Both the position numbers and the translations under genes were made by a program. Positions 7,698-62,954 of a stretch of 64,000 nucleotides of DNA are shown here, one piece after another. Every line of letters starts with the position of its first letter. The stretch's first letter is position 1. Below the pieces are notes generated by a model, which worked only from the letters and a program-made list of their open reading frames with translations, was not told the origin of the DNA and did not search any database. Source of the DNA: Blastochloris viridis (GTDB lineage: Bacteria; Pseudomonadota; Alphaproteobacteria; UBA2136; UBA6156). Location: contig VAFM01000002.1 in assembly GCA_005768725.1 (NCBI GenBank), forward strand, positions 546,048 to 610,047. Direction: 5' to 3'.

Positions 7698-8324
7698 ATG
7701 GAACATGTGGAACAGGCGATTGGCCGCCCGCTGACATCGCAGGAAATCAAGCAATTACAAGACTATGCGCAGATGCTGCGCCAGTGGAATCCAAAGATCA
7801 ATCTGGTTTCGCCGACCACGCTGCCCGATCTCGAAAAGAGACATATAGTAGACAGTGCCCAGCTGGTGCCTCACCTGCCTGCGCAAGAGGGTTTGGATGT
7901 GCTGGATGTTGGCTCTGGTGCTGGTCTTCCGGGCATTATCATGGCCACTTTGGCGCCGCACCATCGTTTCACGCTGGCCGAACGGGACCAACGGAAGTGT
8001 GCTTTCCTGCATATGGCGGCCTATACGCTGGGTTTGAAGAACCTGAAAGTCCATGCGGCCGACGTAACAAAGCTGGAAAATCAATACGATATTGTCACAT
8101 GCCGCGCTTGGGCCGACATGCAGGCTATCTTTACCCTTACCTCCCCCCTCCTGAAGGAACAGGGGTCGTGGTTGCTGCTTAAAGGTAAGGCACTCGACGC
8201 AGAATTAAAGGTTTGTGAAACGATGTTTCACCTGACAGAGGAGCGTTTTCCGAGTAGAGTATCAGACATCGATGGCGGGCGTGGTTGGGTAGTCAAACTG
8301 ACACGTGGGCAAGTGAAACTTTAA
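7698..8324 (+). CDS. rsmG: 16S rRNA (guanine527-N7)-methyltransferase RsmG (GidB)
   Basis: Immediately follows mnmG. SAM-methyltransferase motif LDVGSGAGLPGI; 208 aa. Confidence 0.9.
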   Translation: MEHVEQAIGRPLTSQEIKQLQDYAQMLRQWNPKINLVSPTTLPDLEKRHIVDSAQLVPHLPAQEGLDVLDVGSGAGLPGIIMATLAPHHRFTLAERDQRKCAFLHMAAYTLGLKNLKVHAADVTKLENQYDIVTCRAWADMQAIFTLTSPLLKEQGSWLLLKGKALDAELKVCETMFHLTEERFPSRVSDIDGGRGWVVKLTRGQVKL

Positions 8325-8342: not shown

Positions 8343-8439
8343 CCCGGACCCTTCTCCCCCTCATCTATAGGGTATCGCGCAGGTAGCGCCACAGCCGGAT
8401 GTCATGTCCGGTAGAGAAGGGAAATCAGGGGGGACCATC

Positions 8440-9264
8440 ATGGCCACGCGTATCATTACTCTCAGCAATCAGAAGGGTGGGGTCGGCAAAACCACTACGG
8501 CCATTAACCTGGCAACCGCCCTCGCCGCCTGCGGCAACCGCGTTCTGGTGGTCGACTTCGACCCGCAGGGGAATACCACTACCGGCTTCGGTATCGACAA
8601 ACGCAATCTCTCGGCCAGCAGCTATAGCCTGGTCATGGGCGAAACCGACCTGTCCCAGTCCACCATCGCCACCAGTGTTCCGGGGCTTTGGCTGGTGCCC
8701 AGTACGATTCACCTGAGCGGAGCCGAAGTTGAACTCGTCCCCGTTATGGCACGCGAAAACCGTTTAAAAGACGCCCTGCTGCCTGCCCAGGAAGTGTATG
8801 ACTATGTCTTTATCGATAGCCCTCCCTCTCTTGGCCTTCTGACGATTAACGCCTTGGTCGCCAGCACCGATGTGATGATCCCGCTCCAGTGCGAATTCTT
8901 TGCCATGGAAGGTCTGAGCCAGTTGTTCAAGACCATTGATCTGGTCAAGCGCAACCTCAACCCGCAGCTGGAAATGATGGGTGTGCTGCTGACGATGTTC
9001 GACAAGCGCAACAATCTCGCCCAGCAGGTGGTGAATGATGTGCGCGAACACCTCGGCGACAAAGTTTTCGATACCATTATCCCGCGTAATGTCCGCCTGT
9101 CGGAAGCCCCGTCTCACGGTGCGCCGGGCCTTATCTATGATGTGAAATCCCCCGGTTCGCAGGCCTACATCCGTCTCGCGGCCGAACTGATGCAGCGCCT
9201 GACCGTGCCGGTCGCACCTGAAGCGGCGGCTGCATCTTCCCAAACCCCGGCCCAGGCCGCCTAA
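8440..9264 (+). CDS. parA: chromosome-partitioning ATPase ParA
   Basis: IITLSNQKGGVGKTTTAINLATALA deviant Walker A; Mrp/MinD-family body. Start set at the internal Met. Confidence 0.95.
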   Translation: MATRIITLSNQKGGVGKTTTAINLATALAACGNRVLVVDFDPQGNTTTGFGIDKRNLSASSYSLVMGETDLSQSTIATSVPGLWLVPSTIHLSGAEVELVPVMARENRLKDALLPAQEVYDYVFIDSPPSLGLLTINALVASTDVMIPLQCEFFAMEGLSQLFKTIDLVKRNLNPQLEMMGVLLTMFDKRNNLAQQVVNDVREHLGDKVFDTIIPRNVRLSEAPSHGAPGLIYDVKSPGSQAYIRLAAELMQRLTVPVAPEAAAASSQTPAQAA

Positions 9265-9291
9265 CTCCAAGCAACAAGAAGGACGATAGTC

Positions 9292-10431
9292 ATGACTGAT
9301 ACCAAACCGACGCACGCCACCACCCAAACCGGCGGCACCCCTTCCCCGTTGCAATCTGTGTCCCTGCCGGGTGTCACACCCAACCCGCAGGCTCAGGCAG
9401 GCGCCATGGCCGCTATTGCGGCTGCCCAAGCTGCAGCACAGGCCACAATGTCCCAACAACAGCCCAAGCCTGCTGCAGCTCAGCCTGTAAAAGGTCTGGG
9501 GCGTGGTTTGGGTGCGCTGCTGGATGACACTGCCGCTGCTGCCGTTGCGCCGCAAATGCAAAGCGCCGCAACGCCGGCCCAGGCTGTGAAGGGTGATACC
9601 ACCCTGCCCCTCACCGCGCTGATTCCTTCCACCGTCCAGCCGCGCCGCCAGTTCGATGACACCATGCTGGAAGCCCTCACCTCCTCTATTAAGGCGCAAG
9701 GCGTGCTTCAGCCGCTGCTGGTGCGTCCGGCCAAGATGCAGGGCCAGTACGAGATTATTGGTGGCGAACGCCGCTGGCGTGCCGCCAAGGCCGCAGGCCT
9801 CAGCGTGGTGCCGGTGATCATCCGCGACCTCGACGACGGCCGTGCGCTGGAAGTCGCGCTGGTGGAGAACATCCAGCGTGCCGACCTGAACCCGCTTGAA
9901 GAAGCCACCGGTTACCAGCGTCTGGTCGCCGAGTTCAACTATACCCACGAAGATATGGCCCGTGTGACCGGTAAGTCCCGCAGCCATATTACCAACCTGC
10001 TGCGCCTGCTGGCCCTGCCGGAAAAGATCAAGGAATGTGTCAATAATGGCCTCCTGAGCATGGGTCATGCCCGTGCCCTGCTCGGTCTGGCGGAAGACCC
10101 GGAACTCCAGCTCCGTGCCGCCAACCGCGTGATCAAGAATCAACTGAGCGTGCGTGAGACCGAAGACCTGGTGCGTAACCTTGTCCGTCCCAACCAGCCT
10201 GCCCGTGGCCGCCGTCCCGCCGACCCCAAGATCTCCGCGCTGGAAACCCTGATGCAGGAACGCGTCGGCCTGAAGGTGGCCATCCGTCAGAAGGATGCCA
10301 AAGGCGGCGGTTCGGTGCGCATCTTCTTTGATAACGTGGAAGAACTGTCATCCCTGCTCAAGCGTATCGGTACCCAGCAGCAGCTGGCGCGCATGGCCGA
10401 AGCTGCTAATGAAGGTCGTATCGATATCTAG
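9292..10431 (+). CDS. parB: chromosome-partitioning protein ParB
   Basis: ParB N-domain [16 protein letters not shown] (GERRxRAA CTP motif), HTH, C-terminal dimerisation region; follows parA. Confidence 0.95.
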
Positions 10432-44459: not shown

Positions 44460-44581
44460 CCACCCTCCCGCTCCATCTCCTGCCGGGCGGTGCTAATTTC
44501 CCACAGCCCGCGCGCCCAAAAGTGAACACAATGCGTTGAACACTTGGCGGAGCGCCGCATGCACGGCACAATCCGGCCAGT

Positions 44582-50958: not shown

Positions 50959-51723
50959 ATGAACCTCTCTCGGGCCTTGTTGGCATGTATCTGTCTGTCT
51001 GCCGCCGTTATGGCGCAGCCGGTGCGTGCCGATTATGAGAACGACCCGTTCGACCCGCTGATCGCCCGTGACGCCTGGATGCTGATCGCTCAGGCCGAAC
51101 GCTCCAACGGTATTCCGGCAGGCCTGCTGCACGCCATGAGCCTGGTCGAAACTGGCAAGGGGATCCGTGGCTGGGTCTTGCCGTGGCCGTACACCATCGG
51201 CGTCAATGGCACCGGAGTACAAAAGTTTGCCACGCGTGAAGAGGCGATGACGGCGTTCACCCGTTACCGCAACCTGGGCTTCGTCCGTTTTAATGTCAGC
51301 GCGCTCGGTGTACGCCTCAGCAAGGCCAAACCCTTGGAAGTGGCCGCCGCACTGGGCAGTGTTCCGGCAGGTTCTCCGGTTACGCTGGAAGGCATCAATT
51401 ACGGCCGTCGCTTCAATAGCGAGCGTGAAGCCGCCGCATTTCTCCGCCGCATGTTCAGCGCAGGCTACCGCAATGTCGATGTCGGCATGATGCAGATCAA
51501 CTGGCGCGTCCACAGCCAGCACTTCAGCAGTATCGAAGAAGCCCTGAACCCCGACACCAACCTCAATTATGCCGTGCGCTACCTGTTGGAGCACCGTCAG
51601 ACCCGCGACTGGTGGGGTTCGGTCGGCCGTTACCACAGTGGCACCAGCCGCTATGCCAACAAATACATCCGCAGCGTGTACAACATGTACCTGCGCATTC
51701 ACCGGGTGAATACCTCCGCATGA
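50959..51723 (+). CDS. lytic transglycosylase (SLT domain; PilT of R64 / BfpH / VirB1-like)
   Basis: Signal peptide MNLSRALLACICLSAAVMAQPVRA; SLT motif GLLHAMSLVETGKG (catalytic Glu); ...DVGMMQINWRVH..YAVRYL. Confidence 0.85.
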   Translation: MNLSRALLACICLSAAVMAQPVRADYENDPFDPLIARDAWMLIAQAERSNGIPAGLLHAMSLVETGKGIRGWVLPWPYTIGVNGTGVQKFATREEAMTAFTRYRNLGFVRFNVSALGVRLSKAKPLEVAAALGSVPAGSPVTLEGINYGRRFNSEREAAAFLRRMFSAGYRNVDVGMMQINWRVHSQHFSSIEEALNPDTNLNYAVRYLLEHRQTRDWWGSVGRYHSGTSRYANKYIRSVYNMYLRIHRVNTSA

Positions 51724-53558
51724 GCAAACCGATGTCCTCCGGGCGTAGCTGGACGCCTTCGCAACAGCAGGTGCTGGCCTTCAATGGCAGCAGCCTGACC
51801 GTTGGTACGCCCGGCAGTGGCAAAACCTCGCTGCTGCTGGCGCAGGCCGAGCATCTGGCCAATCATGGCCACAAGGTGGCCGTCGCCACCTTCTCCTTCC
51901 GCAGCCATCAGTATCTCAAGGCCATCGCCACGCCGTCGCAGGCGGCTATCTGGAACCGCCTCGGTACCGGTACGCTGCGCGATCTGGCCATCCAGCAACT
52001 GCATATTGCGGGCCAGAGCTTCAGCTTCGCCAGCAACAATCAGGTGCGCGAGATCCTGCGCGGCCTGATCCCGGCCCAGGCCTTCCCCGGTACGCTGGAA
52101 GATGCCGAGCACATCATCCGTACCGCCAAGGCCCGTGCCAAAAAGCTGCCCGAAAGTGATCGTTATTACCCATTCGTCGAAGCCTATAAAGCGCGTCTGG
52201 AAGAACTTGGCCTGGCCGACCGCCATGACATCATCCGCCGCCACGTTATCGGCATGCGCGATGGCTCGGTGCCGCCGCTGCCCGTCACCCATCTGTTGCT
52301 GGATAACGTGCAGGATGCCACCGAACTCCAGCTTATCTGGCTGCAGATGCATCTGGCGCAGGGTATCACGCTCAAACTGACTGGCGACGATGACGTTACC
52401 GCCTTCGGTCAGGATGGCGCGCAAGGCCCTAAAGCGCTGGAAACGATTGAAAGCTGGGGCGAGATGACCCGCTTTAACCTGACCGAGACCCAGCGCATCG
52501 CACCGGTACTCGTACCGGCGGTCGACAAGATCGCGCGCCAGCTCCGCACCCGCGTTGCCAAAACGCTGGAGGCCGCCCCTGCGACGAAGGACTCTCTCCG
52601 TCAGAATGCCACCCTGCGCGTCGAGGTTTTTCCCAACGCGCCCGCCGAGCACGTCTTTCTGGCCGAAACCTGTCAGGAACTGCTGCGCAAGCTTCCACAG
52701 GGCCAGCGCACACCCGGCGCCGGCCACCAGATCGGCATTCTTACCCGCACCCACTTCGAGGCCGCTTGCATCACCCACGCGCTGCGCCGCCATGGCCTGA
52801 ATCCCGCAAGCTATGCCCGTCTTATCTGGGAAGAACGCACGCCCCAGATCATCCTCTCGCTGCTGTACCTGATGCTCGGGCAGGGCAACAACGGCCACCT
52901 GCATATGGTGCTGCTCGGCTTTGGTGTACCCGCCACCACCGTCGCGGCACTCTTCCAGGCGGGCCTGCGCGCCGAACAATGGGCGGCCCACGGGTTTACT
53001 GTTCCTGCCTTGCCAGACGAATCCCCGACAACCCTGGCTACGCTCCAGCAAGTCCGTCGTGCCATGCGTACGTCCCAACAACTTCTGCAGGCGCCACCGG
53101 CCGCCACCGGCATGGCCGATGCCGCACTCACGCCGCGTATGGTCTTCAAAGCACTGGTGTCTGAACTTCTGCCCCACCTGCCGGCCGACGAACACGCCTA
53201 CGCGCTACTGGCCACGGATATGCTGCTGAATCTGTCCGGCAAGCTCACCGAAGTATTGCCGCGCGTGCGGACGGAAACCCTGCCGGATATGGCTTCACCC
53301 ATCGTGGTGGCGCCGGTGCGCGAAACCCGCAACCAGCAGTTCGGTACCGTCATTCTGCCCTATGCCTCGGCGAACCACTGGCCCAAGCCGCCCTCCAAAC
53401 TGATGGGCACGGATGCCGACCACGAGCGCCGCCTGTTCTATCTGGCCATTACCCGGAGCGCCGGTTCGCTCATCTTTACCCGCCACCAGCCGGAAGCATC
53501 GCCGCTGGTGCAGGAGCTTCAGCAGAGCCTGAAGCAGCAGGCCCGCAAGGCTGCATAA
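51720..53558 (+). CDS. UvrD/Rep-family superfamily-1 helicase-like protein with degenerate motif II
   Basis: Motif I TVGTPGSGKTS; motif II LLDNVQDAT (canonical DEFQD, so the catalytic Glu is replaced by Asn); motif III LTGDDDVTAFGQDGA; motif VI YLAITRSAGSLIF. Start ATG overlaps the SLT stop (ATGA). Confidence 0.75.
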   Translation: MSKPMSSGRSWTPSQQQVLAFNGSSLTVGTPGSGKTSLLLAQAEHLANHGHKVAVATFSFRSHQYLKAIATPSQAAIWNRLGTGTLRDLAIQQLHIAGQSFSFASNNQVREILRGLIPAQAFPGTLEDAEHIIRTAKARAKKLPESDRYYPFVEAYKARLEELGLADRHDIIRRHVIGMRDGSVPPLPVTHLLLDNVQDATELQLIWLQMHLAQGITLKLTGDDDVTAFGQDGAQGPKALETIESWGEMTRFNLTETQRIAPVLVPAVDKIARQLRTRVAKTLEAAPATKDSLRQNATLRVEVFPNAPAEHVFLAETCQELLRKLPQGQRTPGAGHQIGILTRTHFEAACITHALRRHGLNPASYARLIWEERTPQIILSLLYLMLGQGNNGHLHMVLLGFGVPATTVAALFQAGLRAEQWAAHGFTVPALPDESPTTLATLQQVRRAMRTSQQLLQAPPAATGMADAALTPRMVFKALVSELLPHLPADEHAYALLATDMLLNLSGKLTEVLPRVRTETLPDMASPIVVAPVRETRNQQFGTVILPYASANHWPKPPSKLMGTDADHERRLFYLAITRSAGSLIFTRHQPEASPLVQELQQSLKQQARKAA

Positions 53559-53584
53559 AAGAACCGGCCTCCAGGCCGGTTCAG
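53559..53584. terminator. bidirectional terminator hairpin between convergent genes
   Basis: agaaccggcctccaggccggttc perfect hairpin. Confidence 0.6.
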
Positions 53585-53595
53585 AGTTTTGAGCG

Positions 53596-54147
53596 TTATT
53601 GGCACACGCTGCGACCACAGGTCGTCGTGTAAATGGGGTTACAGGTCTCACAACCGTCATGATATCCCGAAGAGCGGTACCCGGTTAAAACCGTACCAAA
53701 GCTGCTGTAACCTGCGGGGCACTGGCCAGAGGTTGTCGTGGTCGTCTCCAGACGGCAGTTGGCCGAAACCTGGCTGCTGGAGGTCGAACGGCAGCTGTCG
53801 CTGGCGCGAGAGTAGACCTGGTTGTTGTTGCCGCACGCGATGAACTTCTGCAGGATCGAATCATCATAGGCCGCCCCCTTACATCCAAGCGCATCGGCAC
53901 CCTGTTCGTTTTTACCGATATAGAGAAGACCGCGCTTACCGCATTCAATCGCTTCGGTCACACGCACATTCAGTCCTGCTATCCGCCCTTCTGCAGCCGT
54001 GGCGAGATTGGAGAGTGCCTGCCAGGAGGTTTGGTCTGTCTGCGCACCCGCTGCCGTGCGCTCCTGCGCAAGGGGAGCGGCGGAGGTCATGCTCAGGGCA
54101 CACAAGGAGAGGCACAGGGCGAGAAGGCGGGAAGAGGCGAAGATCAT
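53596..54147 (-). CDS. secreted cysteine-rich protein, paralog A (~184 aa, 10 Cys)
   Basis: Signal peptide MIFASSRLLALCLSLCALSMTSAAP; conserved FIACG, QCPAGY, HDGCETCNPIYTTTC; ends ...GRSVCQ. Confidence 0.65.
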   Translation of the reverse strand: MIFASSRLLALCLSLCALSMTSAAPLAQERTAAGAQTDQTSWQALSNLATAAEGRIAGLNVRVTEAIECGKRGLLYIGKNEQGADALGCKGAAYDDSILQKFIACGNNNQVYSRASDSCRSTSSSQVSANCRLETTTTTSGQCPAGYSSFGTVLTGYRSSGYHDGCETCNPIYTTTCGRSVCQ

Positions 54148-54170
54148 GGTAAGGCTCTTGATGTTGGTTG

Positions 54171-54737
54171 TTATTTGTACTCGCACACCATCGTGGCACA
54201 GGTCGTCGTGTAAATGGGGTTGCACGTTTCGCAACCGTCATGCCAACCGGAGGATTTGTAGCCCGCGAAAACGGTACCCATATTGTTATATCCGGCCGGG
54301 CAACGGTTGCCGTACGACATATTGCTGGTGATTGTGGTCGTTCGCATGGAGCATACCTGAACCTTTTCGATGGTGGAGAGGCAACGGTCCTGATTCATCG
54401 CATAGATCAGGCCTTGGTCACCGCAGGCGATGAACTTGTTCAGAATGGCGCTGGAGTAGGGCGCAGCAAGGCAGCCTTCCGCGTCGGCCCCGTTAATGCC
54501 TGGCGCATACATACGTCCCTTGGCGGCGCATTTGGACGACTGGTTCAGCCGGATGGACACGGTTTGTGCCGCCATCTGGGTTTTGTTGAGGGAATTGGCG
54601 ATACCGGACCATTTTGTTTCCGTCTCAAGAGACTCGGTCACGGCGCGTTCCTGGGCTGCGGCGGCAGGGAGGTAAACGCCACAGGCAAGGCCAGCAAGGC
54701 TTGCGACGCAGAAAAGGGTTTTCGTGAAGAGACTCAT
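54171..54737 (-). CDS. secreted cysteine-rich protein, paralog B (~189 aa, 10 Cys)
   Basis: Signal peptide MSLFTKTLFCVASLAGLACGVYLPAAAA; same conserved Cys spacing (FIACG, RCPAGY, HDGCETCNPIYTTTC); 23-nt gap to paralog A. Confidence 0.65.
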   Translation of the reverse strand: MSLFTKTLFCVASLAGLACGVYLPAAAAQERAVTESLETETKWSGIANSLNKTQMAAQTVSIRLNQSSKCAAKGRMYAPGINGADAEGCLAAPYSSAILNKFIACGDQGLIYAMNQDRCLSTIEKVQVCSMRTTTITSNMSYGNRCPAGYNNMGTVFAGYKSSGWHDGCETCNPIYTTTCATMVCEYK

Positions 54738-54850
54738 GTGTACCTTTATAGGGATGAGGGGTGGGGTGTCTGACATAGCGTCCGGAACGACGAGATATCA
54801 GGCTGCAAAACGATTACATCTCAAAGAAGACAAACCCGACACCAAATTCG

Positions 54851-54900
54851 CACACCCCCTGTCAGTTTTGAGAAGGGGGGTGCATCAAAAAACTGACACT
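54851..54900. promoter_or_regulatory. nested palindrome in the divergent promoter between the Cys-rich operon and the sigma-ParB fusion gene
   Basis: Outer perfect 10-bp inverted repeat TGTCAGTTTT(54860-54869)/AAAACTGACA(54889-54898); inner CCCCC/GGGGGG hairpin arms (54855-54859/54875-54880). Confidence 0.5.
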
Positions 54901-54955
54901 CGCAGAAATCCGTGCCATTCTAAGGGTAATAACAAGCCAGAAGGCATCGTCACGT

Positions 54956-57241
54956 ATGAGTAAAGCCACCAAAGCCACGGTCCGTAAACCTGCAGCTCCC
55001 GCCAAAACTGTTAAGGCCGCACCTGCCATCAAAGCGGTGGCCGAACCCAAGGCCAAAGCGCCCACCAAAGGCCAGCAGCGTCAGGTCGCCCGTAACGAGG
55101 CCGATGTCGCGGCCCTCAAGGCTGCCGACGAAGGTTTCAAGCTTGCCCGCGAGAATGCGGTGAAGTACCTGCACAGCCGCCGTCAGGCCATTTTCGCATT
55201 GGCCCGCCATTTCCACCTGGATGCCGACGACCTGCAGCAGGAAGCCTACGAAGTGCTGTTGACCTGCCTGCGCGATTTCAACCCGCTCTACACCAAGGCC
55301 GATGGCACCACCGTCAACGTCCAGTTCAACACCTTTTTCGGCAACCGTTTGGAAGGCAAGGCGCTGGAGCAGCGCAACCGTGACCCGGAATACCAGGCCC
55401 GTCAGGCCCACCTGCAGGACATGAGCGACGAGGAACGCACCGAATTCCGTAAAAACCCGCCCTTGCTGGTACAGCACCTCGACCAGGAAACCACCATGCA
55501 GGAAACCCTGCGCGGCGAGGTGGCCGCCGCCCAGCGCTCCCGCCAGACCAATATGGCACTGAAAGTAGTGCAGGATACCTTCATCGAACGCAAACTGAAC
55601 GACCTGATTGCCGCCGAACGCGACGACAAGCGCCGTGCCGCCCTGATGCACGTCAAGGTGGGTGGCGTCAGCAGCTTTGAAGAGATCGCCTACCACTTCG
55701 GGGTCACCGACAGTCGCGCCAGCCAGATCCTGAACGAACTGATGGATGCGTTCTACGTGCAGCGCCTGATTGATGGCGACCTGAAGAGCGTGATGTACGA
55801 CTTCCGCAAGCTCAGTCTGCAACCTAAACGCACCCAGCGCCTGCTGGAAGAGGCCATGCGCAATGCCCCTACACCCCGCGCCGCCGAGATTGCCAACCTG
55901 TTCATGGCCGAATACCCGGACCTGCGCGAGGTATTGGGCAGCCTGCCGAAACCCGGCCAGATTGCCGAAAAGACCGAAACCGACAGCGCCGAAGCGCCAG
56001 CGACTGCCAGCGGCAACGCGTTGCCGGCACAGCTGACGCCCGCCGAAGAGGACCAGTACCCGTTGCAGGCCGTGGAATGGCGCGAAATCGCAACCCTGAC
56101 CGCGCTGGGCGTCCAATTCCGCCCGACCTTGATGCAGGCACCGGAAGATATGGCGCATATCCGCCAGATTGCCGCCCATCCCGCCGAAACCTGGGCACCG
56201 CTGATCGTGACGCCGGAAGGCGGCGTGATTGATGGGGAGCGCCGCATTGCGGCCGCCCGCGCCAAGGGTATCACCCGTTTGCTCTGTCAGGTACGTACCA
56301 CGCCTAGTGCTGCGCTGGCCCGCCAGTTGCGTGTCTGCCTCAACAGCCGTGTCCGTCCGCTGGATAAACTGGAACTGTATTTCGCCATCGGTGCATTGTC
56401 CGAGCTGGGCCTGACCCAGGGCGTTATCGCCCAAGCGCTTGGTACCAGTCGCCCCAACGTTATCGTTTACGCCAAGGTGCGCGAAAAAGCTTCGCCGCGC
56501 CTGCGCCAGTTGTTCGAAGACGGACTGATTCAGATCACCAATGCTTCCAGCGCGGTCGATCTTCCGGTCCAGTCGCAGGATGAAATGGCCGACTTCATTC
56601 GCCAATACGGTGCCGGGTGGGGCCGTGGCCCGCAGTTTAACGAGCTGTACGCCGCTGCCGCCGAAGGTCAGATTGCCGCCCTTGTGCCGCCGCAGGTAGG
56701 TGGGCCGCAACCCAGCCATGCTGCCATTCTGCCACTCCCCAGCATTCCCGCCGCCACACTGGCATCCGCTCCGGTGCAGGGTGCCCAACTGGTAGCGCCT
56801 CCCGGTTCACTCTCTCCCACACTGGCAACCGCGCTTAAAAAGCGACAGGAGGCACTGGAAACCGCACTGCGCGACAGCGAGATCTGGGCCCGTCAGCGTG
56901 AGGCGACCATTACCAGCCAAACCAGCCAGATTCATGATCTGCGTCAACAGGTTGAGAGTTATAAACGCGAACTTGAAGCGCAAACTCTGCTGCAACATGG
57001 CGATGCGGCGACCATGGCCAATTATATGAAGGAACTCAAAGCCTTCTATGCGGTGCAGGAGCGTTTGGCCAGTGCCATCCACCAACTGGAAAAGACCCAC
57101 ACCGCGGTGCGCAGCCTGAACCTAACCCACCGTCAAACGGTTGAATTGGAACAGTTGTTGGAGAAAGTTGCCTCTCTGCAAACGGCTCTGCGCGTGCAAC
57201 TGGTAAAATCCCCCACCCCCACACCCGAAAATACGCGCTAA
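54956..57241 (+). CDS. fusion protein: Lys/Ala-rich histone-like tail + sigma-70-family (regions 2 and 4) domain + ParB-like N-domain with HTH + C-terminal coiled coil
   Basis: Residues 1-40 KATKATVRKPAAPAKTVKAAPAIKAVAEPKAKAPTKG. Sigma region 2 DLQQEAYEVLLTCLRDFNP...FNTFFGNRLEGKALEQ. Region-4 HTH VSSFEEIAYHFGVTDSRASQILNELMD. ParB motif LIVTPEGGVIDGERRIAAARAKGITRL with HTH LTQGVIAQALGTSRPNV. Heptad-rich C-terminus. Confidence 0.65.
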   Translation: MSKATKATVRKPAAPAKTVKAAPAIKAVAEPKAKAPTKGQQRQVARNEADVAALKAADEGFKLARENAVKYLHSRRQAIFALARHFHLDADDLQQEAYEVLLTCLRDFNPLYTKADGTTVNVQFNTFFGNRLEGKALEQRNRDPEYQARQAHLQDMSDEERTEFRKNPPLLVQHLDQETTMQETLRGEVAAAQRSRQTNMALKVVQDTFIERKLNDLIAAERDDKRRAALMHVKVGGVSSFEEIAYHFGVTDSRASQILNELMDAFYVQRLIDGDLKSVMYDFRKLSLQPKRTQRLLEEAMRNAPTPRAAEIANLFMAEYPDLREVLGSLPKPGQIAEKTETDSAEAPATASGNALPAQLTPAEEDQYPLQAVEWREIATLTALGVQFRPTLMQAPEDMAHIRQIAAHPAETWAPLIVTPEGGVIDGERRIAAARAKGITRLLCQVRTTPSAALARQLRVCLNSRVRPLDKLELYFAIGALSELGLTQGVIAQALGTSRPNVIVYAKVREKASPRLRQLFEDGLIQITNASSAVDLPVQSQDEMADFIRQYGAGWGRGPQFNELYAAAAEGQIAALVPPQVGGPQPSHAAILPLPSIPAATLASAPVQGAQLVAPPGSLSPTLATALKKRQEALETALRDSEIWARQREATITSQTSQIHDLRQQVESYKRELEAQTLLQHGDAATMANYMKELKAFYAVQERLASAIHQLEKTHTAVRSLNLTHRQTVELEQLLEKVASLQTALRVQLVKSPTPTPENTR

Positions 57242-57251
57242 CCCTTGCATA

Positions 57252-59177
57252 ATGCGTACACCTGCACCATTTTGGAACTATATGGAATGGAAACGTATTT
57301 CCGGGCGATCGGGTAAGGCCGTTGGAGCGGCTGTTTTGGCATTGCAAATCTGTGTTGGCAGCGTTTATGCGCAATTCGATGGAACCGGCGGCATTCCCGC
57401 GGCTGACCTGTATCTATCACCTCTGCCGGAAACAGGTCTTCGTGTTCCGCCGAGTGGAGCTATCAATATTACCCCAGCTTTAAATCCCGAAGAAGCGATG
57501 GGTGATCGAACTCCTGTTATGACCGGTGAAGCCGCAAAGGTAGGAGACGTGACGAATACGCTTGGTTGCGCTGGTATCGGTCAGGGTGAGTTTACCAGCG
57601 GTTTGTACAATATGCCGGAGACCTATCTGAAATTCCAGCAGGATGTGAACTCGACCCTCTCGAAGAACTTGCTCTCCCTCAACTTCGTCATGCCGCAAAC
57701 CTCGGCGCTGTTTGAGCAGTTGAACAATATCGGTAACCAGCGTTATGACCAGTTCCAGCGCGCCTGTAACGTCACTCAGCTTCAGCAGGATGCCAAACAG
57801 ACCTACATGCAGGCCTGTGTGGAAAAGCTGACGCCTGAGCGCAAAAAGCTGATCGAAGAAGACAATAACAAACGTCCTCAAAATGCGCGGATTCCCGAGG
57901 CACAGATCGGCCCGATGGCCTATGCCCAGGCGTGGGAAGTCTGTGGCAACCAGTACACGAGTAATACAACGGCATTGGACGTACGCAATACCAAGCTTAC
58001 GGATTTCTATACAAAAACACGTGAACTGGAACGTGTGAACGATGCTGTTGCACCGCTGCTGTGCCAACTGACCAACTCTCAGAAGGCGTCCGATGATATT
58101 GCTGGCTGCTGGAGTCAATTCCTGATTCCGCAAGTCCGCATCTGTCTTGGGAATGATCTGGAAGGCGGCTGCACCGATGGTAACTATGGCGTTAAAGAGC
58201 CGATTATCACGATGCAGCGTCTATTCGATACCATGCGCTTTGTTATGGAAGATGAAGTGATCGCACGTCGCGTTATCAGTTTTACCACCCAGTTGGATCA
58301 AAAAAATATAGGACCCTCTGCACGTCGCCTTGCAGCGGCAGAGGCCTCGCTGGCAATGAGCACAGCTACATTGTTCCGCGGTGTGAGTGGCACGACATCG
58401 ACGGGTTCAGATATTCCCTCCATGCCTCTTAATACAGTGCAGGATTATCAGCTTGGCTACCTCAGTTGTAAACAGAATGATATTCTTATTCCTTTGAAGG
58501 AATATCAGAACCGCATTAAAGAAAAAGCCGGATCGGGTGTCGAAATTAAGGATATAGAAGAGCTTTTAGAACCCGCCTACGAACAGGTGGTAAAGAGGAT
58601 GAAGCTGCCCAGTATGTCGGGTAAGAACAGTGGTGCAGCGGGCGCAGAATCGGGTGGTGGTGATGTTAATGATGAAAAGGATGTGAAGGCGGTAGGTGCT
58701 CTTCTCAAAACGGCTATTGGTTGTACGGCCAACCAGTCCATTCCGATTTTTGACCCGAATATCACTGCGGCTCTTCAAACCCAATGCAGTGCGCAAGACC
58801 GCTCCGCTTTCTATACCATGGCCGGTTACGATGTCGCCTTAACTGCTACGCGCGATGTCTACCGCTACACAGGCCTCAAGCTGAAGCAGGTCTATGCCCG
58901 CCTGCTGACGGAAGCGATGGTACCGGTCTCTGATACGACGAATACATCTGTCAGCCCGACCCTTAGCCCGGAACTGAACGCCAAGTTCGCCACGGTCGTG
59001 AAGGATGTCATGATTCCGTACGTGGATGCCCAAATCCAGCGTCTGGATGAACTGAACACCACGCGCGGTGTCTTTGGTCAGCGTGTCCGGGAAATTTATA
59101 ACAATAAGAGTGGATGTATGTCGCAGCCTGCAGGGTTCGTTCTGCCAAATGGCAGACCCGCGACATTTCGTCCGTAG
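57252..59177 (+). CDS. large secreted Cys-containing protein (641 aa), possible T4SS periplasmic component (TraH/TraN-like?); lower-GC gene
   Basis: Signal peptide GAAVLALQICVGSVYAQ; ~18 Cys; AT-richer codon usage than neighbours. Alternative start at 57282 (MEWKR). Confidence 0.45.
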   Translation: MRTPAPFWNYMEWKRISGRSGKAVGAAVLALQICVGSVYAQFDGTGGIPAADLYLSPLPETGLRVPPSGAINITPALNPEEAMGDRTPVMTGEAAKVGDVTNTLGCAGIGQGEFTSGLYNMPETYLKFQQDVNSTLSKNLLSLNFVMPQTSALFEQLNNIGNQRYDQFQRACNVTQLQQDAKQTYMQACVEKLTPERKKLIEEDNNKRPQNARIPEAQIGPMAYAQAWEVCGNQYTSNTTALDVRNTKLTDFYTKTRELERVNDAVAPLLCQLTNSQKASDDIAGCWSQFLIPQVRICLGNDLEGGCTDGNYGVKEPIITMQRLFDTMRFVMEDEVIARRVISFTTQLDQKNIGPSARRLAAAEASLAMSTATLFRGVSGTTSTGSDIPSMPLNTVQDYQLGYLSCKQNDILIPLKEYQNRIKEKAGSGVEIKDIEELLEPAYEQVVKRMKLPSMSGKNSGAAGAESGGGDVNDEKDVKAVGALLKTAIGCTANQSIPIFDPNITAALQTQCSAQDRSAFYTMAGYDVALTATRDVYRYTGLKLKQVYARLLTEAMVPVSDTTNTSVSPTLSPELNAKFATVVKDVMIPYVDAQIQRLDELNTTRGVFGQRVREIYNNKSGCMSQPAGFVLPNGRPATFRP

Positions 59178-59294
59178 GCGCGCAAGCCGCTCGTTCTTTC
59201 ACCAACTTGTTTCCCTGCAACACCGGATAACAGCTGACACTCTGTAAAAACGCGGGCATTATCGGCCCAAGGTGTAACAGGGGAACAATAAGTC

Positions 59295-61496
59295 GTGTCC
59301 GATATGCAGCATGTGATGGCGGGGGAGGGGCCGCAGATACTTCCGGTTCTCGCCGGCTGCTGGGATCTACGCCTAGGCTATCACCCGTCCCTGAAACAGC
59401 AATTGCCGATGCTGGCCGACCTTCCGGTGTTGGAATCGGTTGAGGCGCAGCAGTTGGCAGAGCTGGAGCTTCCCGTCGCGCTTGCAACCACCGGTCACCA
59501 CCTGATGAAGGATGCGGCTCTGCTTGCCGCTGCCATGCCGCAGGGGGGTATGGTCGAAGCGGCGGATGTCTATCCGTTGGCGCCGGTCTTTGTGCGCGAC
59601 CTCTGCGGTCGTCCCATCCATACCGGTCTTGTTCCGCTGCCTGCCGCACCGTCGGTACCCCTCTTTCCTACAGGTTGCCGTCATGTCCCGAAGGATCATC
59701 CGGCCTATGCGCATCTCGAAAGCCTGATCTGGCAGACGCTGCGCCGTATCGAATGCGCGCCGGTGCGTCCCGATGCCGCAGGGCTTGCAGGGCAGCCTGA
59801 ACTGAGTTTGCGGGCCGCCATTGCCCAACCGCAAGCGTATGCTTTCAAGCTTCGCCCGGACACGTTTTACGCCGATGGCTGGCGCTTGCCGGTGGTGCCG
59901 CGCGTGTTTGCCGTGCCGGTGCAGCCGGTGCAGGCGCAGGCAGCGGCCGACGAACTTCTGGCGCGCTGGCAGCAGCGTCCGGAAGGGCAGGATTACGAAG
60001 CCTTTTACGACGCCAACAATGGTGAGATCTGGTTTGAAGAGCTGTTCGAGCGCGGCTGTACGGTGATCCCGACCCTGGAGGCCTACAATGGCCGCTATCA
60101 TATCGGGGCCGATTACGTGGCGACGGCGGTCGATCCGGGCCGCGCTCTGCCGGGGTTGCATGAGGTTGTCGGGCGTGAGCCGTCGGAATATGCCGCAGGT
60201 ACGATTCTTGAAGTCAAAGCCCCGGGCTGGGTGACGGCGACCACGGTGCACAAGGCGCAGGTGGTTGTGAGTGATGGCAGTGCATTCGTTGCAGCCGATG
60301 CCCCGCTGCCGCAGTTGCCAGACTTGGCGCTGCCGCACGCGCGGGTGGGGGGCAAGGTGGGCGATGTCTGGCTGCCGACACATCCCGAACACTTTGCCGA
60401 ACCGGCCTTGTACGACTGGAACGAGATGGGGCATTTTGTCCAGATCTCAGGCCCGCTCTGGGATCCTCTCCATTATGTTTATACCAGCACGGCACCGCTT
60501 CTGCGGGCGCTGCGCAAACCGCACCCGGTGGTGGCAGGCGCCTATGTGCTGCCGGAATCCGTCAAGCTGCGCTTCCATCCGCTGGCGCAACTGACGTGGT
60601 ACGACGCCTACAACGAGCGGACCGCCCAGCAGCGCATGCAGGATCCGGCCCACCCCTTGTACGGCAGTGCCATCGACATGGTGCCGCTGATGCGCGAAGT
60701 GGCGCCCGCCGGGTATCACCGTCTGCCGTGGGGGTTGGAATATGAATTGGACCCAGCCCATCTGCCAGCGCTGCATCCGCGTCATCGTGCGGTGGTCTAT
60801 CCAGAAGTTTTGGCTGGTCGTCGCATGGGTATTGCCACATTAAGCGATGCCGACAGCTACCGTACGCACGACACGGTGGTAACCGAAGCGATGCGGGATG
60901 TATTGGCGCATGCGTGTACGGCTCCGTTTGAGGAAGCTGTTTGCGACATCCATGCCACACTGCTTCCTGCCGAATTGCTGGCGCAGCCGGAACCGCACAT
61001 GCGGGCCGTGCCGGTCTGGTTGCCTGAAATTTCAGCCAGCCATCTCGCGGTAAATATCAAGAGAATTTTCGCAGCACGGCGCTATCGGCAGGCGGTACAA
61101 GAGCAGTCGGTCCGCTGGGGACAGTCTGGTTTTCCGGCGGCCTTCTACCAATTCCGAGAGTCAGCGCTGGCTTGGCGCCGCTTGCGTTACCGCCTGTTTG
61201 GCAAGTATGCCTCGGTCTGGCAGCAGGCTGCGGCAGAAGGTTTGGATCTTACCGCGGCTGAACTTCTGGTGCCGGAGTCCGATCCGGTGCGTCATGCGCA
61301 GGTGCAGCACGCGCGTGCCAGCGGGCTGGGAGTGGTTGCAGAGGTGCCTCTCCAGAGGGCGGATGGTTTGCCTTCCTCTGCGGCACAGGGTAAGCTCACG
61401 CAAGCTGAGCGGCCTAAGCCCCCACGGGCGCTGGACAAGGCCTCGCACAAGGTGCGGCAGGGTCGCGCGCAAACCGATAACAACGGCATGGAATAA
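59295..61496 (+). CDS. large cytoplasmic hypothetical protein (733 aa); GTG start
   Basis: Long ORF with consistent codon usage; no recognisable motif; Trp/His-rich. Confidence 0.45.
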   Translation: MSDMQHVMAGEGPQILPVLAGCWDLRLGYHPSLKQQLPMLADLPVLESVEAQQLAELELPVALATTGHHLMKDAALLAAAMPQGGMVEAADVYPLAPVFVRDLCGRPIHTGLVPLPAAPSVPLFPTGCRHVPKDHPAYAHLESLIWQTLRRIECAPVRPDAAGLAGQPELSLRAAIAQPQAYAFKLRPDTFYADGWRLPVVPRVFAVPVQPVQAQAAADELLARWQQRPEGQDYEAFYDANNGEIWFEELFERGCTVIPTLEAYNGRYHIGADYVATAVDPGRALPGLHEVVGREPSEYAAGTILEVKAPGWVTATTVHKAQVVVSDGSAFVAADAPLPQLPDLALPHARVGGKVGDVWLPTHPEHFAEPALYDWNEMGHFVQISGPLWDPLHYVYTSTAPLLRALRKPHPVVAGAYVLPESVKLRFHPLAQLTWYDAYNERTAQQRMQDPAHPLYGSAIDMVPLMREVAPAGYHRLPWGLEYELDPAHLPALHPRHRAVVYPEVLAGRRMGIATLSDADSYRTHDTVVTEAMRDVLAHACTAPFEEAVCDIHATLLPAELLAQPEPHMRAVPVWLPEISASHLAVNIKRIFAARRYRQAVQEQSVRWGQSGFPAAFYQFRESALAWRRLRYRLFGKYASVWQQAAAEGLDLTAAELLVPESDPVRHAQVQHARASGLGVVAEVPLQRADGLPSSAAQGKLTQAERPKPPRALDKASHKVRQGRAQTDNNGME

Positions 61497-61502
61497 CCGA
61501 AG

Positions 61503-62954
61503 ATGGCGTCCGAAAACTCACCCGATTACATCGCCCGTCCGGGCGCCGGTGGCAAGCCGGAAGGTGGCACGTCGCAAGCCTCTGACGCACTGCAGCGTTT
61601 CCGCGCATTGCCGCCCAAGCTGCAGGGTGCCATTCTCATCGGTGCGCTGATTCTGGTGTTCTACGTCATTTCCACCCTGCGCGGCGGCGGTGCGTCTACG
61701 CAGCGCAGCGTTGTCAATCTGGGGCAGACCAATAACCGCACCGGCCAGGTCAGTGCGACTTTCACAGGTATCGAAACCGACCGTCCGGCCGTGATGCAGG
61801 CGGTGTTCGAGCAGAACCGTCGTGATATGGCCGAACTGCGTTCCAAGATCGAAAGCGATTTCAGCATCCGCGACAAAGCCCTGCAGGATGCTATCACCCA
61901 AAACCAGGAACTGCAGCGCCAAATGCAGCAGATGATGGGCGACTTTACCACCGAGCTGAAGAGCATTCAGGTGGAGCGCGCCCGCGATAACGAGCGTCTG
62001 GCTCAACTGGCCGACCAGCAACGCCAGTTGGAACTGAATGCGCCGGTCAACGGCGTTGGTCAGGTCGGCGGCATTACGCCGCAGCGCCGTGCCATCCAGC
62101 AGGTTGTGCTGGGCGGCGGTGGCGGTGGTGTGATGGGAGCTGTCCGCGCCCCTTTCGCGCAGGCGGGGACGGGCTCTAACAAGTCGGACTCAGCGGGTCA
62201 GGCTGTCCGTAACCCCGCTGAAAAGGCGGCGGAAGAGCGCTTACCATTCATTCCGCCGCTGGGCTTTGTCCGTGCAACCATGCTGAACGGTGTTGATGCG
62301 CTGGTCGGTGGAACCACGACACCAGCTCTGGCCCGCCTGTCGGGAACCTACAAAACCGCCATGAACAGCACGATCTCGCTGGATGGCTGTATCGCCATGG
62401 TCGAATTTACCGGTAATATTTCCACCGAGCGCGCCACGGGTAAGCCGGTCCGCATGACGTGTGTCTACCCAGACGGCGGCGCCGCGACCTACAGTCTCTC
62501 TGGGTACGCGGTCGATGCCGAGGACGGTATTATTGGAATTCCCGGCGTTCTATATGAAGGCGACCCGAGCCGTATCGCGGCCGCCATGCTGGCCGAGTTT
62601 GCCGCCGGTGTCGCCGGTATCGTGGAAGACAACACCGGCAACAGCGTCACCCGCGTGAATACCGATGGTACAACGTCTACGTTCGAACTGCCGAGCAGTG
62701 CTGACTGGGCCGAGCAGATTGTCGGCGGGTCCGGCAAGGTGATGGGTTCGCTGCGTGATTATCTCCAGAAACGTGCCGACCGCGTTCAGTCGTTCATCCG
62801 TCTGGATGCCACGCGCGAAATCAATCTGGTGATCCTGAACGGTACCGAACTGCGCAAGTCCGGCGAAGTCTGGAGCGCGCTGTTCGACGGCAATACCGAC
62901 AGCGGCCTGCCGCAATCCAATTTACCCGCCGAGACATCCGGCGCAACGCAATAA
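61503..62954 (+). CDS. TraB/VirB10-family T4SS protein (TrbI-like C-terminal domain)
   Basis: Cytoplasmic N-terminus, one TM (LQGAILIGALILVFYVISTL), coiled coil, Gly-rich linker, C-terminal ...VRMTCVYPDGGAATYSLSGYAVDAEDGIIGIPGVLYEG... consistent with the VirB10/TraB beta-barrel domain. Confidence 0.55.
   Translation: MASENSPDYIARPGAGGKPEGGTSQASDALQRFRALPPKLQGAILIGALILVFYVISTLRGGGASTQRSVVNLGQTNNRTGQVSATFTGIETDRPAVMQAVFEQNRRDMAELRSKIESDFSIRDKALQDAITQNQELQRQMQQMMGDFTTELKSIQVERARDNERLAQLADQQRQLELNAPVNGVGQVGGITPQRRAIQQVVLGGGGGGVMGAVRAPFAQAGTGSNKSDSAGQAVRNPAEKAAEERLPFIPPLGFVRATMLNGVDALVGGTTTPALARLSGTYKTAMNSTISLDGCIAMVEFTGNISTERATGKPVRMTCVYPDGGAATYSLSGYAVDAEDGIIGIPGVLYEGDPSRIAAAMLAEFAAGVAGIVEDNTGNSVTRVNTDGTTSTFELPSSADWAEQIVGGSGKVMGSLRDYLQKRADRVQSFIRLDATREINLVILNGTELRKSGEVWSALFDGNTDSGLPQSNLPAETSGATQ

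Follow-up and report, generated by a model that had tools for sequence, protein, structure and literature searches.

The fusion gene and its family

The window analysed here is the whole 64,000-nucleotide stretch of contig VAFM01000002.1, and the gene in question, a single open reading frame (ORF) located at its positions 54956 to 57241 on the forward strand, encodes a 761-residue protein in which a module resembling sigma-70 factors is joined to the domains of a ParB-type DNA-binding protein. This gene lies inside a divergent cluster of type IV secretion system (T4SS) and type IV pilus genes, of which its product may be the dedicated regulator. From one end to the other, the chain consists of a basic tail, a module with a sigma2-like and a sigma4-like part, a helical spacer, a ParB N-terminal domain followed by a helix-turn-helix (HTH), a linker, and a coiled coil. 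The model of the whole chain built with AlphaFold2 (AF2) on 116 sequences reaches a mean predicted local distance difference test (pLDDT) score of 80.8, with ordered blocks at approximately 50-165, 210-330, 360-580 and 621-751, and disordered stretches at 1-35, 335-353 and 582-620. The residue conservation percentages given below are likewise those over 116 family sequences. The gene can be divided into the following features.

54956..57241, + strand: whole ORF of the sigma-like/ParB fusion protein, 761 amino acids, ATG start (ORF listing; homologues)
54956..55090, + strand: basic tail rich in Lys, Ala and Pro, residues 1-45 (pLDDT below 50 in AF2; varies between lineages)
55211..55450, + strand: sigma2-like domain, residues 86-165 (region 2.2-like motif, beta-hairpin insert 111-121, region 2.3-like motif)
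55592..55780, + strand: sigma4-like HTH, residues 213-275 (invariant F248-G-V-T-D-S-R-A-S-Q257)
55781..55951, + strand: helical extension after the sigma4-like HTH, residues 276-332 (AF2 helices 276-329, pLDDT 90 or more)
55952-56035, + strand: disordered linker, residues 333-360 (AF2 disorder 335-353)
56036..56305, + strand: ParB N-terminal (ParB/Srx, 'CTPase') fold, residues 361-450 (sequence matches in PDB; Foldseek E=3e-6)
56231-56245, + strand: Box II, D426-G-E-R-R430 (conservation in 116 sequences)
56306..56695, + strand: ParB-type HTH DNA-binding domain, residues 451-580, with recognition helix S498-R-P-N-V-I-V-Y-A-K507 (aligned to ParB/Noc/KorB)
56696..57208, + strand: disordered linker, residues 581-620, and three-helix coiled coil, residues 621-751, presumed dimerisation domain (AF2)

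A search of 5.8 billion proteins retrieved 138 relatives of the protein, at least 115 of which are full length (approximately 690-800 residues), with 91-100% query coverage and 41-96% identity, and originate from many independent assemblies. The ORF product itself is 100% identical to P0001, a hypothetical protein encoded on a 626-kb contig of a metagenome-assembled genome (MAG), and all 32 genome matches to the family are MAGs of uncultured bacteria of the Alphaproteobacteria type. The first-pass annotation had read the ORF as one fused chain, had suggested looking for the fusion in orthologues, and had named a frameshift or assembly error joining two genes as the finding that would undo its reading. 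Its coordinates proved to be exact, the same architecture is found across the whole family, and, because the full-length homologues come from independent assemblies, an artefactual join of two genes is excluded. The sigma-like/ParB fusion is a real gene, found in one group of uncultured bacteria. A tblastn search of 72,556 plasmids returned no relative, and the idea of a plasmid regulator was rejected on that ground.

The Lys/Ala tail, previously compared to histones, is present in this protein and predicted to be disordered, but it is not conserved in the family. A tail of at least 35 residues that is rich in K, A and P is found in only 25 of the 116 members, fewer than 25 residues lie ahead of the conserved core in 50 of them, and the mean identity of this segment among distant members is 11%. 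A histone-like tail was therefore rejected as a defining family feature.

The constraint along the chain was measured as region-wise identity to the window protein in the 57 members that are less than 50% identical to it overall. The sigma4-like region is the most conserved segment of the whole protein (76% identity), with the sigma2-like region next (62%), followed by the ParB DNA-binding domain (52%), the ParB N-domain and the coiled coil (35% each), and finally the linkers and the tail (approximately 10%). Such a strong constraint on the sigma-like module is the pattern expected if its partner hardly changes, as for the RNA polymerase core or a fixed DNA motif.

The ParB half

The ParB N-terminal domain and the ParB-type HTH, both proposed in the first-pass annotation, are confirmed in residues 361-580 by matches of sequence and fold to Spo0J, ParB, Noc and KorB. 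In terms of sequence, a phmmer search against PDB retrieved the Spo0J entry 6sdk at E=7e-6, the family profile matches 1vz0, 6sdk, 7bnk, 7nfu and 6t1f (Spo0J, ParB, Noc), and some members match the Pfam families KorB and HTH_ParB, KorB in ten of them. In terms of structure, Foldseek with the whole chain gave 29 matches at E<=1e-3, all of them to ParB, Spo0J, Noc or KorB, over approximately 200 aligned columns and with a probability of 1.00. The HTH domain shares 26% identity with the canonical ParB of the same genome.

The nucleotide pocket is only partly that of a classical ParB CTPase, an enzyme acting on cytidine triphosphate (CTP). The family motif at Box II is D-G-x-R-R, where G427 and R430 are conserved at 100% and R429 at 92%; the signature GERR, taken earlier as a sign of CTP binding, is thus present in this protein with its conserved arginines, but its glutamate E428 occurs in only 52% of the family. 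At the Box I-like site, F388 (93%) and R389 (83%) are kept, while position 387, where a glutamine is found in Box I, is occupied by D, P, E, T or V and by Q in 7 of the 116 sequences. The Box III-like site retains N463 (99%) and R465 (97%) and has L, V or I at the glutamate position 462, in contrast to the same genome's canonical ParB (9292-10431), which carries VENIQRADL. Because the arginines, G427 and N463 are kept and the catalytic residues are not, nucleotide binding by the N-domain appears plausible and efficient CTP hydrolysis doubtful, and CTP specificity cannot be assumed.

Beyond the HTH, the AF2 model has a pLDDT of approximately 40 for residues 582-620, followed by three long helices (621-679, 684-720 and 725-751) in which W644, R648, L678, E702 and E730 are invariant. 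This C-terminal part gives weak coiled-coil-type matches and is not a ParB_C domain, in line with the coiled coil that had been predicted from the sequence. In the model, the succession of N-domain, HTH, linker of approximately 40 residues and coiled coil would be the topology of clamp-forming ParB proteins, and this anatomy would be compatible with a nucleotide-switch clamp of the ParB type to which a sigma-like module is coupled.

A ParB fold and HTH could also belong to a partition protein, that is, the centromere-binding ParB of a mobile element. Neither a ParA gene adjoining the fusion gene nor the LG-R/K-GL motif for interaction with ParA was found in the sequence or in the family consensus, and the chromosome has its own partition pair:

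8404-10431: canonical ParA/ParB pair, with a parB encoding ParB_N, HTH_ParB and ParB_C and the motif GLGRGLGAL

Since this parB is complete, the genome carries a normal ParB besides the fusion protein. The lack of any plasmid relative and the persistence of the fusion in at least 115 independent sequences point the same way, so that a partition protein, like an artefactual join of two genes, is very improbable, and the former was rejected for want of a ParA partner and interaction motif next to a canonical pair.

The sigma-like module

The sigma assignment concerns residues approximately 77-275 and is that of a very divergent member of the family. The NCBIfam model TIGR02937 (sigma-70 family) matches residues 77-263 over model positions 13-158 of 165 (E=2e-6, 27.5 bits), the isolated N-terminal part scoring 30.9 bits against a cut-off of 42.9. 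The same model matches 19 of 20 family members below threshold, with a best E of 3e-9, and weak matches to FliA and WhiG models also appear. In Pfam, Sigma70_r4 matches 26 of 32 members, all below the gathering score (14.9, compared to a cut-off of 24.1), and Sigma70_r2 matches two of the 32 at E=0.009, again below the gathering score. Other HTH families, namely MarR_2, HTH_37 and IclR, match the stretch 236-273 and score as well as or above Sigma70_r4. An hhalign comparison of the N-terminal family profile with the single sequence of E. coli RpoE gave no meaningful match (probability 0.3%), a single-sequence template being too weak for this value to count against the sigma assignment.

In the AF2 model, residues 86-165 adopt the sigma2 domain fold. 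They contain the motif D92-L-Q-Q95-E96-A-Y-E99-V-L-L102, of which Q95, E96, E99 and L102 are invariant in the 116 sequences, and the family also keeps F124-x-T126-F-F-G (F124-N-T126-F-F-G in this protein). We take the D-L-x-Q-E part of the first motif to correspond to sigma-70 region 2.2, which contacts the beta-prime clamp helices, and the second to correspond to region 2.3. Further along the chain, F-G-V-T-D-S-R-A-S-Q(-I) is invariant across the family, and G-V-T-D-S-R-A-S-Q-I presumably resembles the region 4.2 recognition helix of FliA and primary (group 1/3) sigma factors. The helical extension that follows (276-332) has its own invariant residues, D282, K291 and R292.

Sub-threshold, motif and structural evidence thus agree, and together they support the earlier proposal of a sigma-70 region 2 and a region-4 HTH as regards motifs, fold and TIGR02937 matches, although the curated thresholds are not reached. 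A hidden Markov model search of 1.84 billion representative proteins gave neither stand-alone relatives of the module nor other fusion partners. Because no curated threshold was passed and the library profile search found no other sigma factor, we infer, rather than observe, RNA polymerase binding by this module.

In this context, the protein could alternatively be a ParB-type, KorB/BisD-like repressor or activator whose N-terminal module is a relic of a sigma factor, devoid of core binding and serving as an extra DNA- or protein-binding domain. The failure of all curated thresholds and the lack of detectable relatives outside the family would fit such a relic, as would the competing MarR_2, HTH_37 and IclR matches to the same 236-273 stretch and the non-aromatic residues at the positions that we presume to be equivalent to W433/W434, the melting residues of sigma-70. 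A relic is less easily reconciled with a complete sigma2 fold, a D-L-x-Q-E motif and a sigma4-type HTH that are all retained in the right order and spacing, nor would it account for the extreme purifying selection on the module. We consider this explanation unlikely.

Genomic context

The first-pass annotation was made without the decisive context, which is that the fusion gene belongs invariably to a type IV secretion cluster. While the first 20 kb of the window hold housekeeping genes (a mur ligase, mnmG/gidA, parA, a complete parB and leuS), as is typical of a region near the replication origin, the portion from approximately 25 kb to the window end (25000-64000) is occupied by a type IV secretion and type IV pilus cluster. 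This cluster encodes a TraF-like thioredoxin, a TraD-type coupling protein, a secretin, a T2SSE ATPase, a T2SSF platform protein, a prepilin, a TraE-like protein, an SLT transglycosylase, the UvrD-like helicase, the fusion protein, two large untyped proteins and a TraB/VirB10-like protein. Its large proteins of 496, 704, 513, 641 and 733 residues match nothing, and because all the T4SS matches are weak, the cluster is regarded as a very divergent F-like system. The closest neighbours of the fusion gene are listed below.

51612..53558, + strand: UvrD-like helicase gene, near-constant upstream neighbour, true start probably near 51729 (Pfam UvrD-helicase, UvrD_C)
57252-59177, + strand: 641-aa gene, starting 11 nucleotides after the stop of the fusion gene (ORF)
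59295-61496, + strand: 733-aa gene (ORF, synteny)
61503-62954, + strand: TraB/VirB10-like gene (Pfam TrbI match, F-type TraB NCBIfam match)

The genes at 57252..62954 are probably co-transcribed with the fusion gene. The UvrD-like gene precedes the fusion gene in approximately 27 loci, and the order TraE-like, 239 aa, SLT, UvrD-like, fusion gene, (641 aa), 733 aa, TraB-like and 151 aa is kept in approximately 25 loci, down to 41% identity of the fusion protein; a VirB4/TraC-like ATPase comes after this conserved block. When MnmG homologues were paired with 15 fusion-protein homologues, contigs being taken as the same, the identities of the two proteins fell in step (MnmG/fusion protein, for example: 96/91, 86/81, 79/67, 74/54, 70/46 and 69/43%). 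Because of this parallel decrease, the cluster seems to have been passed down vertically along with the chromosome and not to have moved recently, and it is apparently a core trait of an uncultured alphaproteobacterial lineage.

Several further observations were made on this region. In the window and the related loci L001-L033 taken together, the cluster also includes TraC/VirB4 and a prepilin peptidase. The segment 5790-10431, 15 kb away from the secretion cluster, holds mnmG/gidA, a 208-aa gene, a parA-like gene of 286 aa and the canonical parB, and the G+C content falls from approximately 0.60 to 0.50-0.55 between 20000 and 28000, where the housekeeping block gives way to the cluster. No tRNA gene was found anywhere in the window. 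Between the UvrD-like and fusion genes, two paralogous small genes lie on the opposite strand (53596-54234 and 54171-54776, both - strand); their products have hydrophobic N-termini, and hence look secreted, share the Cys-rich C-terminus GY(K/R)SSG(W/Y)HDGCETCNPIYTTTC and have no match in Pfam or NCBIfam. Since this pair is present only in this genome and in locus L004, it is seen as a recent insertion into the fixed gene order. Directly after the UvrD-like gene and the convergent Cys-rich gene, a strong G+C-rich hairpin with flanking T runs (53561-53582) is likely a bidirectional terminator.

The upstream repeat and promoter-like sites

A short inverted repeat and two promoter-like sites are found around the fusion gene.

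54851..54921, + strand: control region P1, with a CACAC box at 54851-54855 and a -10-like CATTCT at 54916-54921, 17 nucleotides past CTGACA
54860-54865 and 54893-54898, + strand: inverted repeat TGTCAG and CTGACA with a 27-nucleotide spacer, conserved in related loci
59218..59262, + strand: promoter-like site P2, between the 641-aa and 733-aa genes, with a (C)AACAC box, CTGACA at 59234-59239, 17 nucleotides, and CATTAT at 59257-59262 (consensus scan)

The palindrome upstream of the gene had been put forward as a candidate target of the protein. What is conserved of it is the nested TGTCAG/CTGACA repeat, whereas the G+C-rich arms are specific to this genome; the latter are not conserved in L003 or L004 and were rejected as a conserved element. 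The TGTCAG...CTGACA repeat is the sole such repeat in the 64 kb, compared to 0.06 expected, and 20 of 34 related loci have it in exact form, in each case just upstream of the fusion gene and nowhere else. Its spacer measures 16-18 or 27-29 nucleotides in 19 of these 20 loci, the two classes thereby being one helical turn apart, and 6 nucleotides in L014.

In the GC-rich clade, the upstream region is built from a CACAC box, the repeat with its CTGACA, exactly 17 nucleotides, and CATTCT, CATGCT or TAnnnT, often with a TG 2-3 bases upstream, an arrangement resembling a promoter in which one arm of the repeat would serve as the -35 hexamer. P2 is built in the same way, as CACAC-N12-CTGACA-N17-CATTAT, and is kept in 8 of 10 GC-rich loci (L003 14250-14295 and equivalents). 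In the AT-rich clades, CTGACA has no conserved -10 partner and a TGTCAG half-site is often found just after the fusion gene; that of L019 stands between the arms of a perfect 11-bp inverted repeat. Over 21 loci, intergenic DNA carries CTGACA at 6.9 times the density of coding DNA (49 sites in 27.5 kb versus 116 in 448 kb, p=7e-22), and among 180 hexamers of identical composition it ranks first for intergenic enrichment. Because of this density and this rank, CTGACA is a genuine cluster-associated element. As a regulon motif, only P1 and P2 recurred when the CTGACA repeat and CTGACA-N17-CAnnnT were sought across the cluster, and a dedicated regulon was not shown.

These promoter-like sites bear on the idea that the protein is an autonomous alternative sigma factor, the ParB part being a fused regulatory extension whose nucleotide or DNA state sets its activity. 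Some extracytoplasmic function (ECF) sigma factors carry regulatory C-terminal extensions, and a sigma2-sigma4 module with a large C-terminal extension is the layout of such factors; besides, P1 and P2 share CTGACA-N17-CAT(T/A)nT in the GC-rich clade. Nevertheless, the -10 regions of P1 and P2, with a TG-type extended -10 in several loci, resemble ordinary sigma-70 promoters, the -10 after CTGACA is not conserved in the AT-rich clades, and each cluster has just one or two such sites. The intact HTH and the presumed dimerisation domain of the ParB part also exceed what a sensor would need, and this proposal is held to be quite improbable.

The position of the repeat is also relevant to a different explanation, in which the protein would be a DNA-processing or substrate-handling factor of the secretion system, working with the UvrD-like helicase, and not a transcription factor. 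The repeat would then be an oriT-like or loading site, the sigma2-like domain would open or hold single-stranded DNA, and the ParB clamp would mark or feed the transferred DNA, in a way resembling the ParB-like proteins on which some conjugative islands depend to secrete or transfer DNA. Sigma2 domains are indeed single-strand-DNA-binding, DNA-melting modules, the UvrD-like gene lies directly upstream in almost every locus, the cluster encodes a TraD-type coupling protein, and no relaxase was recognised in its visible part of 40 kb. The repeat, moreover, falls within the intergenic region between the helicase and fusion genes, and the AT-rich half-sites flank the fusion gene instead of standing at a -35 position. 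However, the repeat has short arms and a spacer that varies in sequence and length, unlike typical oriT hairpins, and the strongest conservation falls on the region 2.2 core-binding motif and the sigma4-like HTH, which is more easily explained by RNA polymerase binding. Given the vertical inheritance of the cluster, there is no evident sign either of an element transferred by classical conjugation, and DNA handling seems to us a rather unlikely function.

Some additional intergenic elements were observed. In five AT-rich loci (L020, L022, L024, L025 and L026), a conserved GTTGCAA(A/T)TTT precedes CTGACA, approximately 130-175 nucleotides upstream of the fusion-gene homologue. The hexamer TGCAAC/GTTGCA, which is the second most intergenic-enriched of its composition (1.2 per kb versus 0.77 per kb in coding DNA) and has TGCAAC-type matches at 44460-44581, may be a second regulatory element. 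The latter coordinates delimit a third conserved intergenic region, located before the 704-aa gene (L003 1167-1284, L013 645-733 and L009 approximately 880-937), which carries ATTTCCCACA(G/C) and a GGCACAAT -10-like box and has a different -35 region.

A proposed regulator of the secretion cluster

The explanation that we favour, with a probability of roughly 0.45, is that the fusion protein is the dedicated regulator of an ancient, chromosomally inherited, divergent F-like T4SS/type IV pilus cluster, belonging to the KorB/BisD/VirB kind and contacting RNA polymerase through a sigma-like effector. As is the case for regulators of this kind, its gene is located inside the T4SS cluster, on the promoters of which the protein would act. 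The chain would dimerise through the coiled coil, and one of the two invariant HTHs would recognise the CTGACA half-sites, which lie across or next to the promoter of its own operon and are found again at P2. Nucleotide binding at the conserved G-x-R-R pocket would lead to engagement of the N-domains, by which the dimer would clamp and spread along the DNA of the cluster like KorB, BisD and VirB. The sigma-like module would finally contact the RNA polymerase core, either supplying promoter recognition or holding or recruiting the polymerase at the cluster promoters. In short, the protein would be a ParB-type switch regulator with an effector domain derived from a sigma factor.

A more specific mechanism can be drawn from the same parts, namely a clamp-delivered sigma factor: the nucleotide-closed ParB ring would load at TGTCAG/CTGACA and slide along the cluster, and the covalently attached sigma module, still functional, would capture the RNA polymerase core and start transcription at distant promoters of the cluster. 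This version is regarded as doubtful.

Several observations weigh against the proposed dedicated regulator. Concerning the sigma-like effector, no sequence reached the curated thresholds of Pfam Sigma70_r2/r4 or NCBIfam TIGR02937, Foldseek with the sigma-like region gave no significant match (best E=0.23), its top matches nonetheless being sigma factors, and the N-terminal family profile (residues 36-335) had no match at E<=10 among all PDB sequences. Furthermore, the sigma-like profile retrieved from the 1.84 billion representative proteins 15 sequences that all are members or fragments of the same family, and no sigma factor. In view of these unmet thresholds, of the two profile searches and of the Foldseek result, a loss of sigma function is conceivable. 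As for the switch, the catalytic residues of ParB CTPases are not conserved (neither the Box I nor the Box III glutamine or glutamate, respectively, and the GERR glutamate missing from half of the members), and a CTP-driven cycle is hypothetical, the sole tested ParB/Sigma70 fusion having bound adenosine triphosphate (ATP). With regard to the DNA target, the half-sites stand 16-29 nucleotides apart, unlike the contiguous 16-bp parS palindrome, CTGACA-N17-TAGAGT also precedes the housekeeping parA, at 8232, and the downstream half-site of the GC-rich clade may be an ordinary -35 element; the repeat is a candidate binding site for the protein. Lastly, the constant helicase neighbour suggests DNA handling no less than transcription.

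Relation to known systems

The first-pass annotation had held the architecture to be absent from characterised systems, which was overstated, since fusions of the ParB fold to Sigma70 domains, though in another domain order, are catalogued in a survey of the ParB-CTPase fold (PNAS 2025, PMC12704722), where the fusions bind CTP, ATP or guanosine triphosphate (GTP). The tested Sigma70 fusion, the gut-phage protein uvig_297896_22, bound ATP and not CTP, and all five ATP binders of that survey have their Box II at residues 52-89, which places their ParB fold at the N-terminus (PMC12704722). As far as descriptions can be compared, uvig_297896_22 shares with the present protein the association of a ParB nucleotide-binding fold and a sigma-70-family domain in one polypeptide, but is a phage protein with an N-terminal ParB fold, ATP as its ligand and no T4SS context described, whereas Box II is found here at residues 426-430, behind the sigma module.

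A closer functional parallel may be BisD of ICEclc, a ParB-like CTP clamp with an activator domain that loads at two bisS sites and activates 11 promoters over approximately 50 kb (PMC12409273). Both proteins combine a ParB N-domain and an HTH with a dimerisation domain and an extra output domain, these last two being presumed for the fusion protein, and both are encoded within a conjugation/T4SS gene set, and the essential Box II arginine of BisD, R95, has as its equivalent R430, which is invariant in the 116 sequences. By contrast, the extra domain of BisD is not sigma-like and requires the partner BisC, and BisD belongs to an ICEclc-type T4SS on a mobile integrative and conjugative element; the fusion protein, when compared with BisD by description, has an N-terminal module with a sigma2 and a sigma4-like fold, an F-like T4SS and a vertically inherited cluster.

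KorB and VirB likewise control genes for transfer or secretion. In Foldseek, the fusion protein aligns structurally with KorB (RK2; 8qa8/8qa9) and Noc (7nfu) over the ParB N-domain and HTH. However, KorB, VirB (Shigella) and Noc have no sigma-like module, use contiguous palindromes as operators, and keep the CTPase residues that are only partly conserved here. In comparison with ECF and group 3-4 sigma factors (SigK, AlgU, SigW, sigmaE, FliA), the protein shares the sigma2 fold, the region 2.2 motif and the short sigma2-sigma4 linker and has a sigma4-like HTH, but its match is sub-threshold and it carries additional helices at the N-terminus, an inserted beta-hairpin, a helical extension of 57 residues and another 430 residues of ParB domains and coiled coil. 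In late transcription of phage T4, the sigma-like gp55 is tethered non-covalently to gp45, a PCNA-type sliding clamp loaded at nicks. The likeness to gp45-gp55 would be conceptual only, lying in a promoter-recognition subunit on a DNA-tracking ring; here a covalent link would join the subunit to a clamp formed by a ParB dimer.

The literature searched contained no description of the family or of its association with a T4SS. In the light of these comparisons, the family is best seen as a variant within the ParB-type switch regulators of transfer and secretion clusters and is not categorically new.

Implications

ParB-type CTP switches, long seen as devices of chromosome segregation, have since been recognised as regulators of plasmid, ICE and virulence genes, as in KorB, BisD and VirB. 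How a sliding ParB clamp is coupled to RNA polymerase is a question still facing these three regulators alike, and the present family constitutes a natural experiment in this respect, the clamp being fused to a module with a sigma fold and a core-binding motif that is also the most conserved part of the protein. If this module is active, it would link a nucleotide-gated DNA clamp directly, and in a way open to testing, to the initiation of transcription, and would widen the definition of sigma-factor regulation. Should the clamp-delivered sigma factor prove true, it would be the first cellular case in which promoter recognition is coupled, in one polypeptide, to a clamp tracking DNA in one dimension, and hence a bacterial counterpart of the T4 gp45-gp55 principle and a new class of nucleotide-switch-regulated sigma factor. 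Finally, the family marks a previously undescribed, vertically inherited T4SS and pilus system, for which the regulator and the conserved CTGACA sites provide a handle for study in heterologous hosts.

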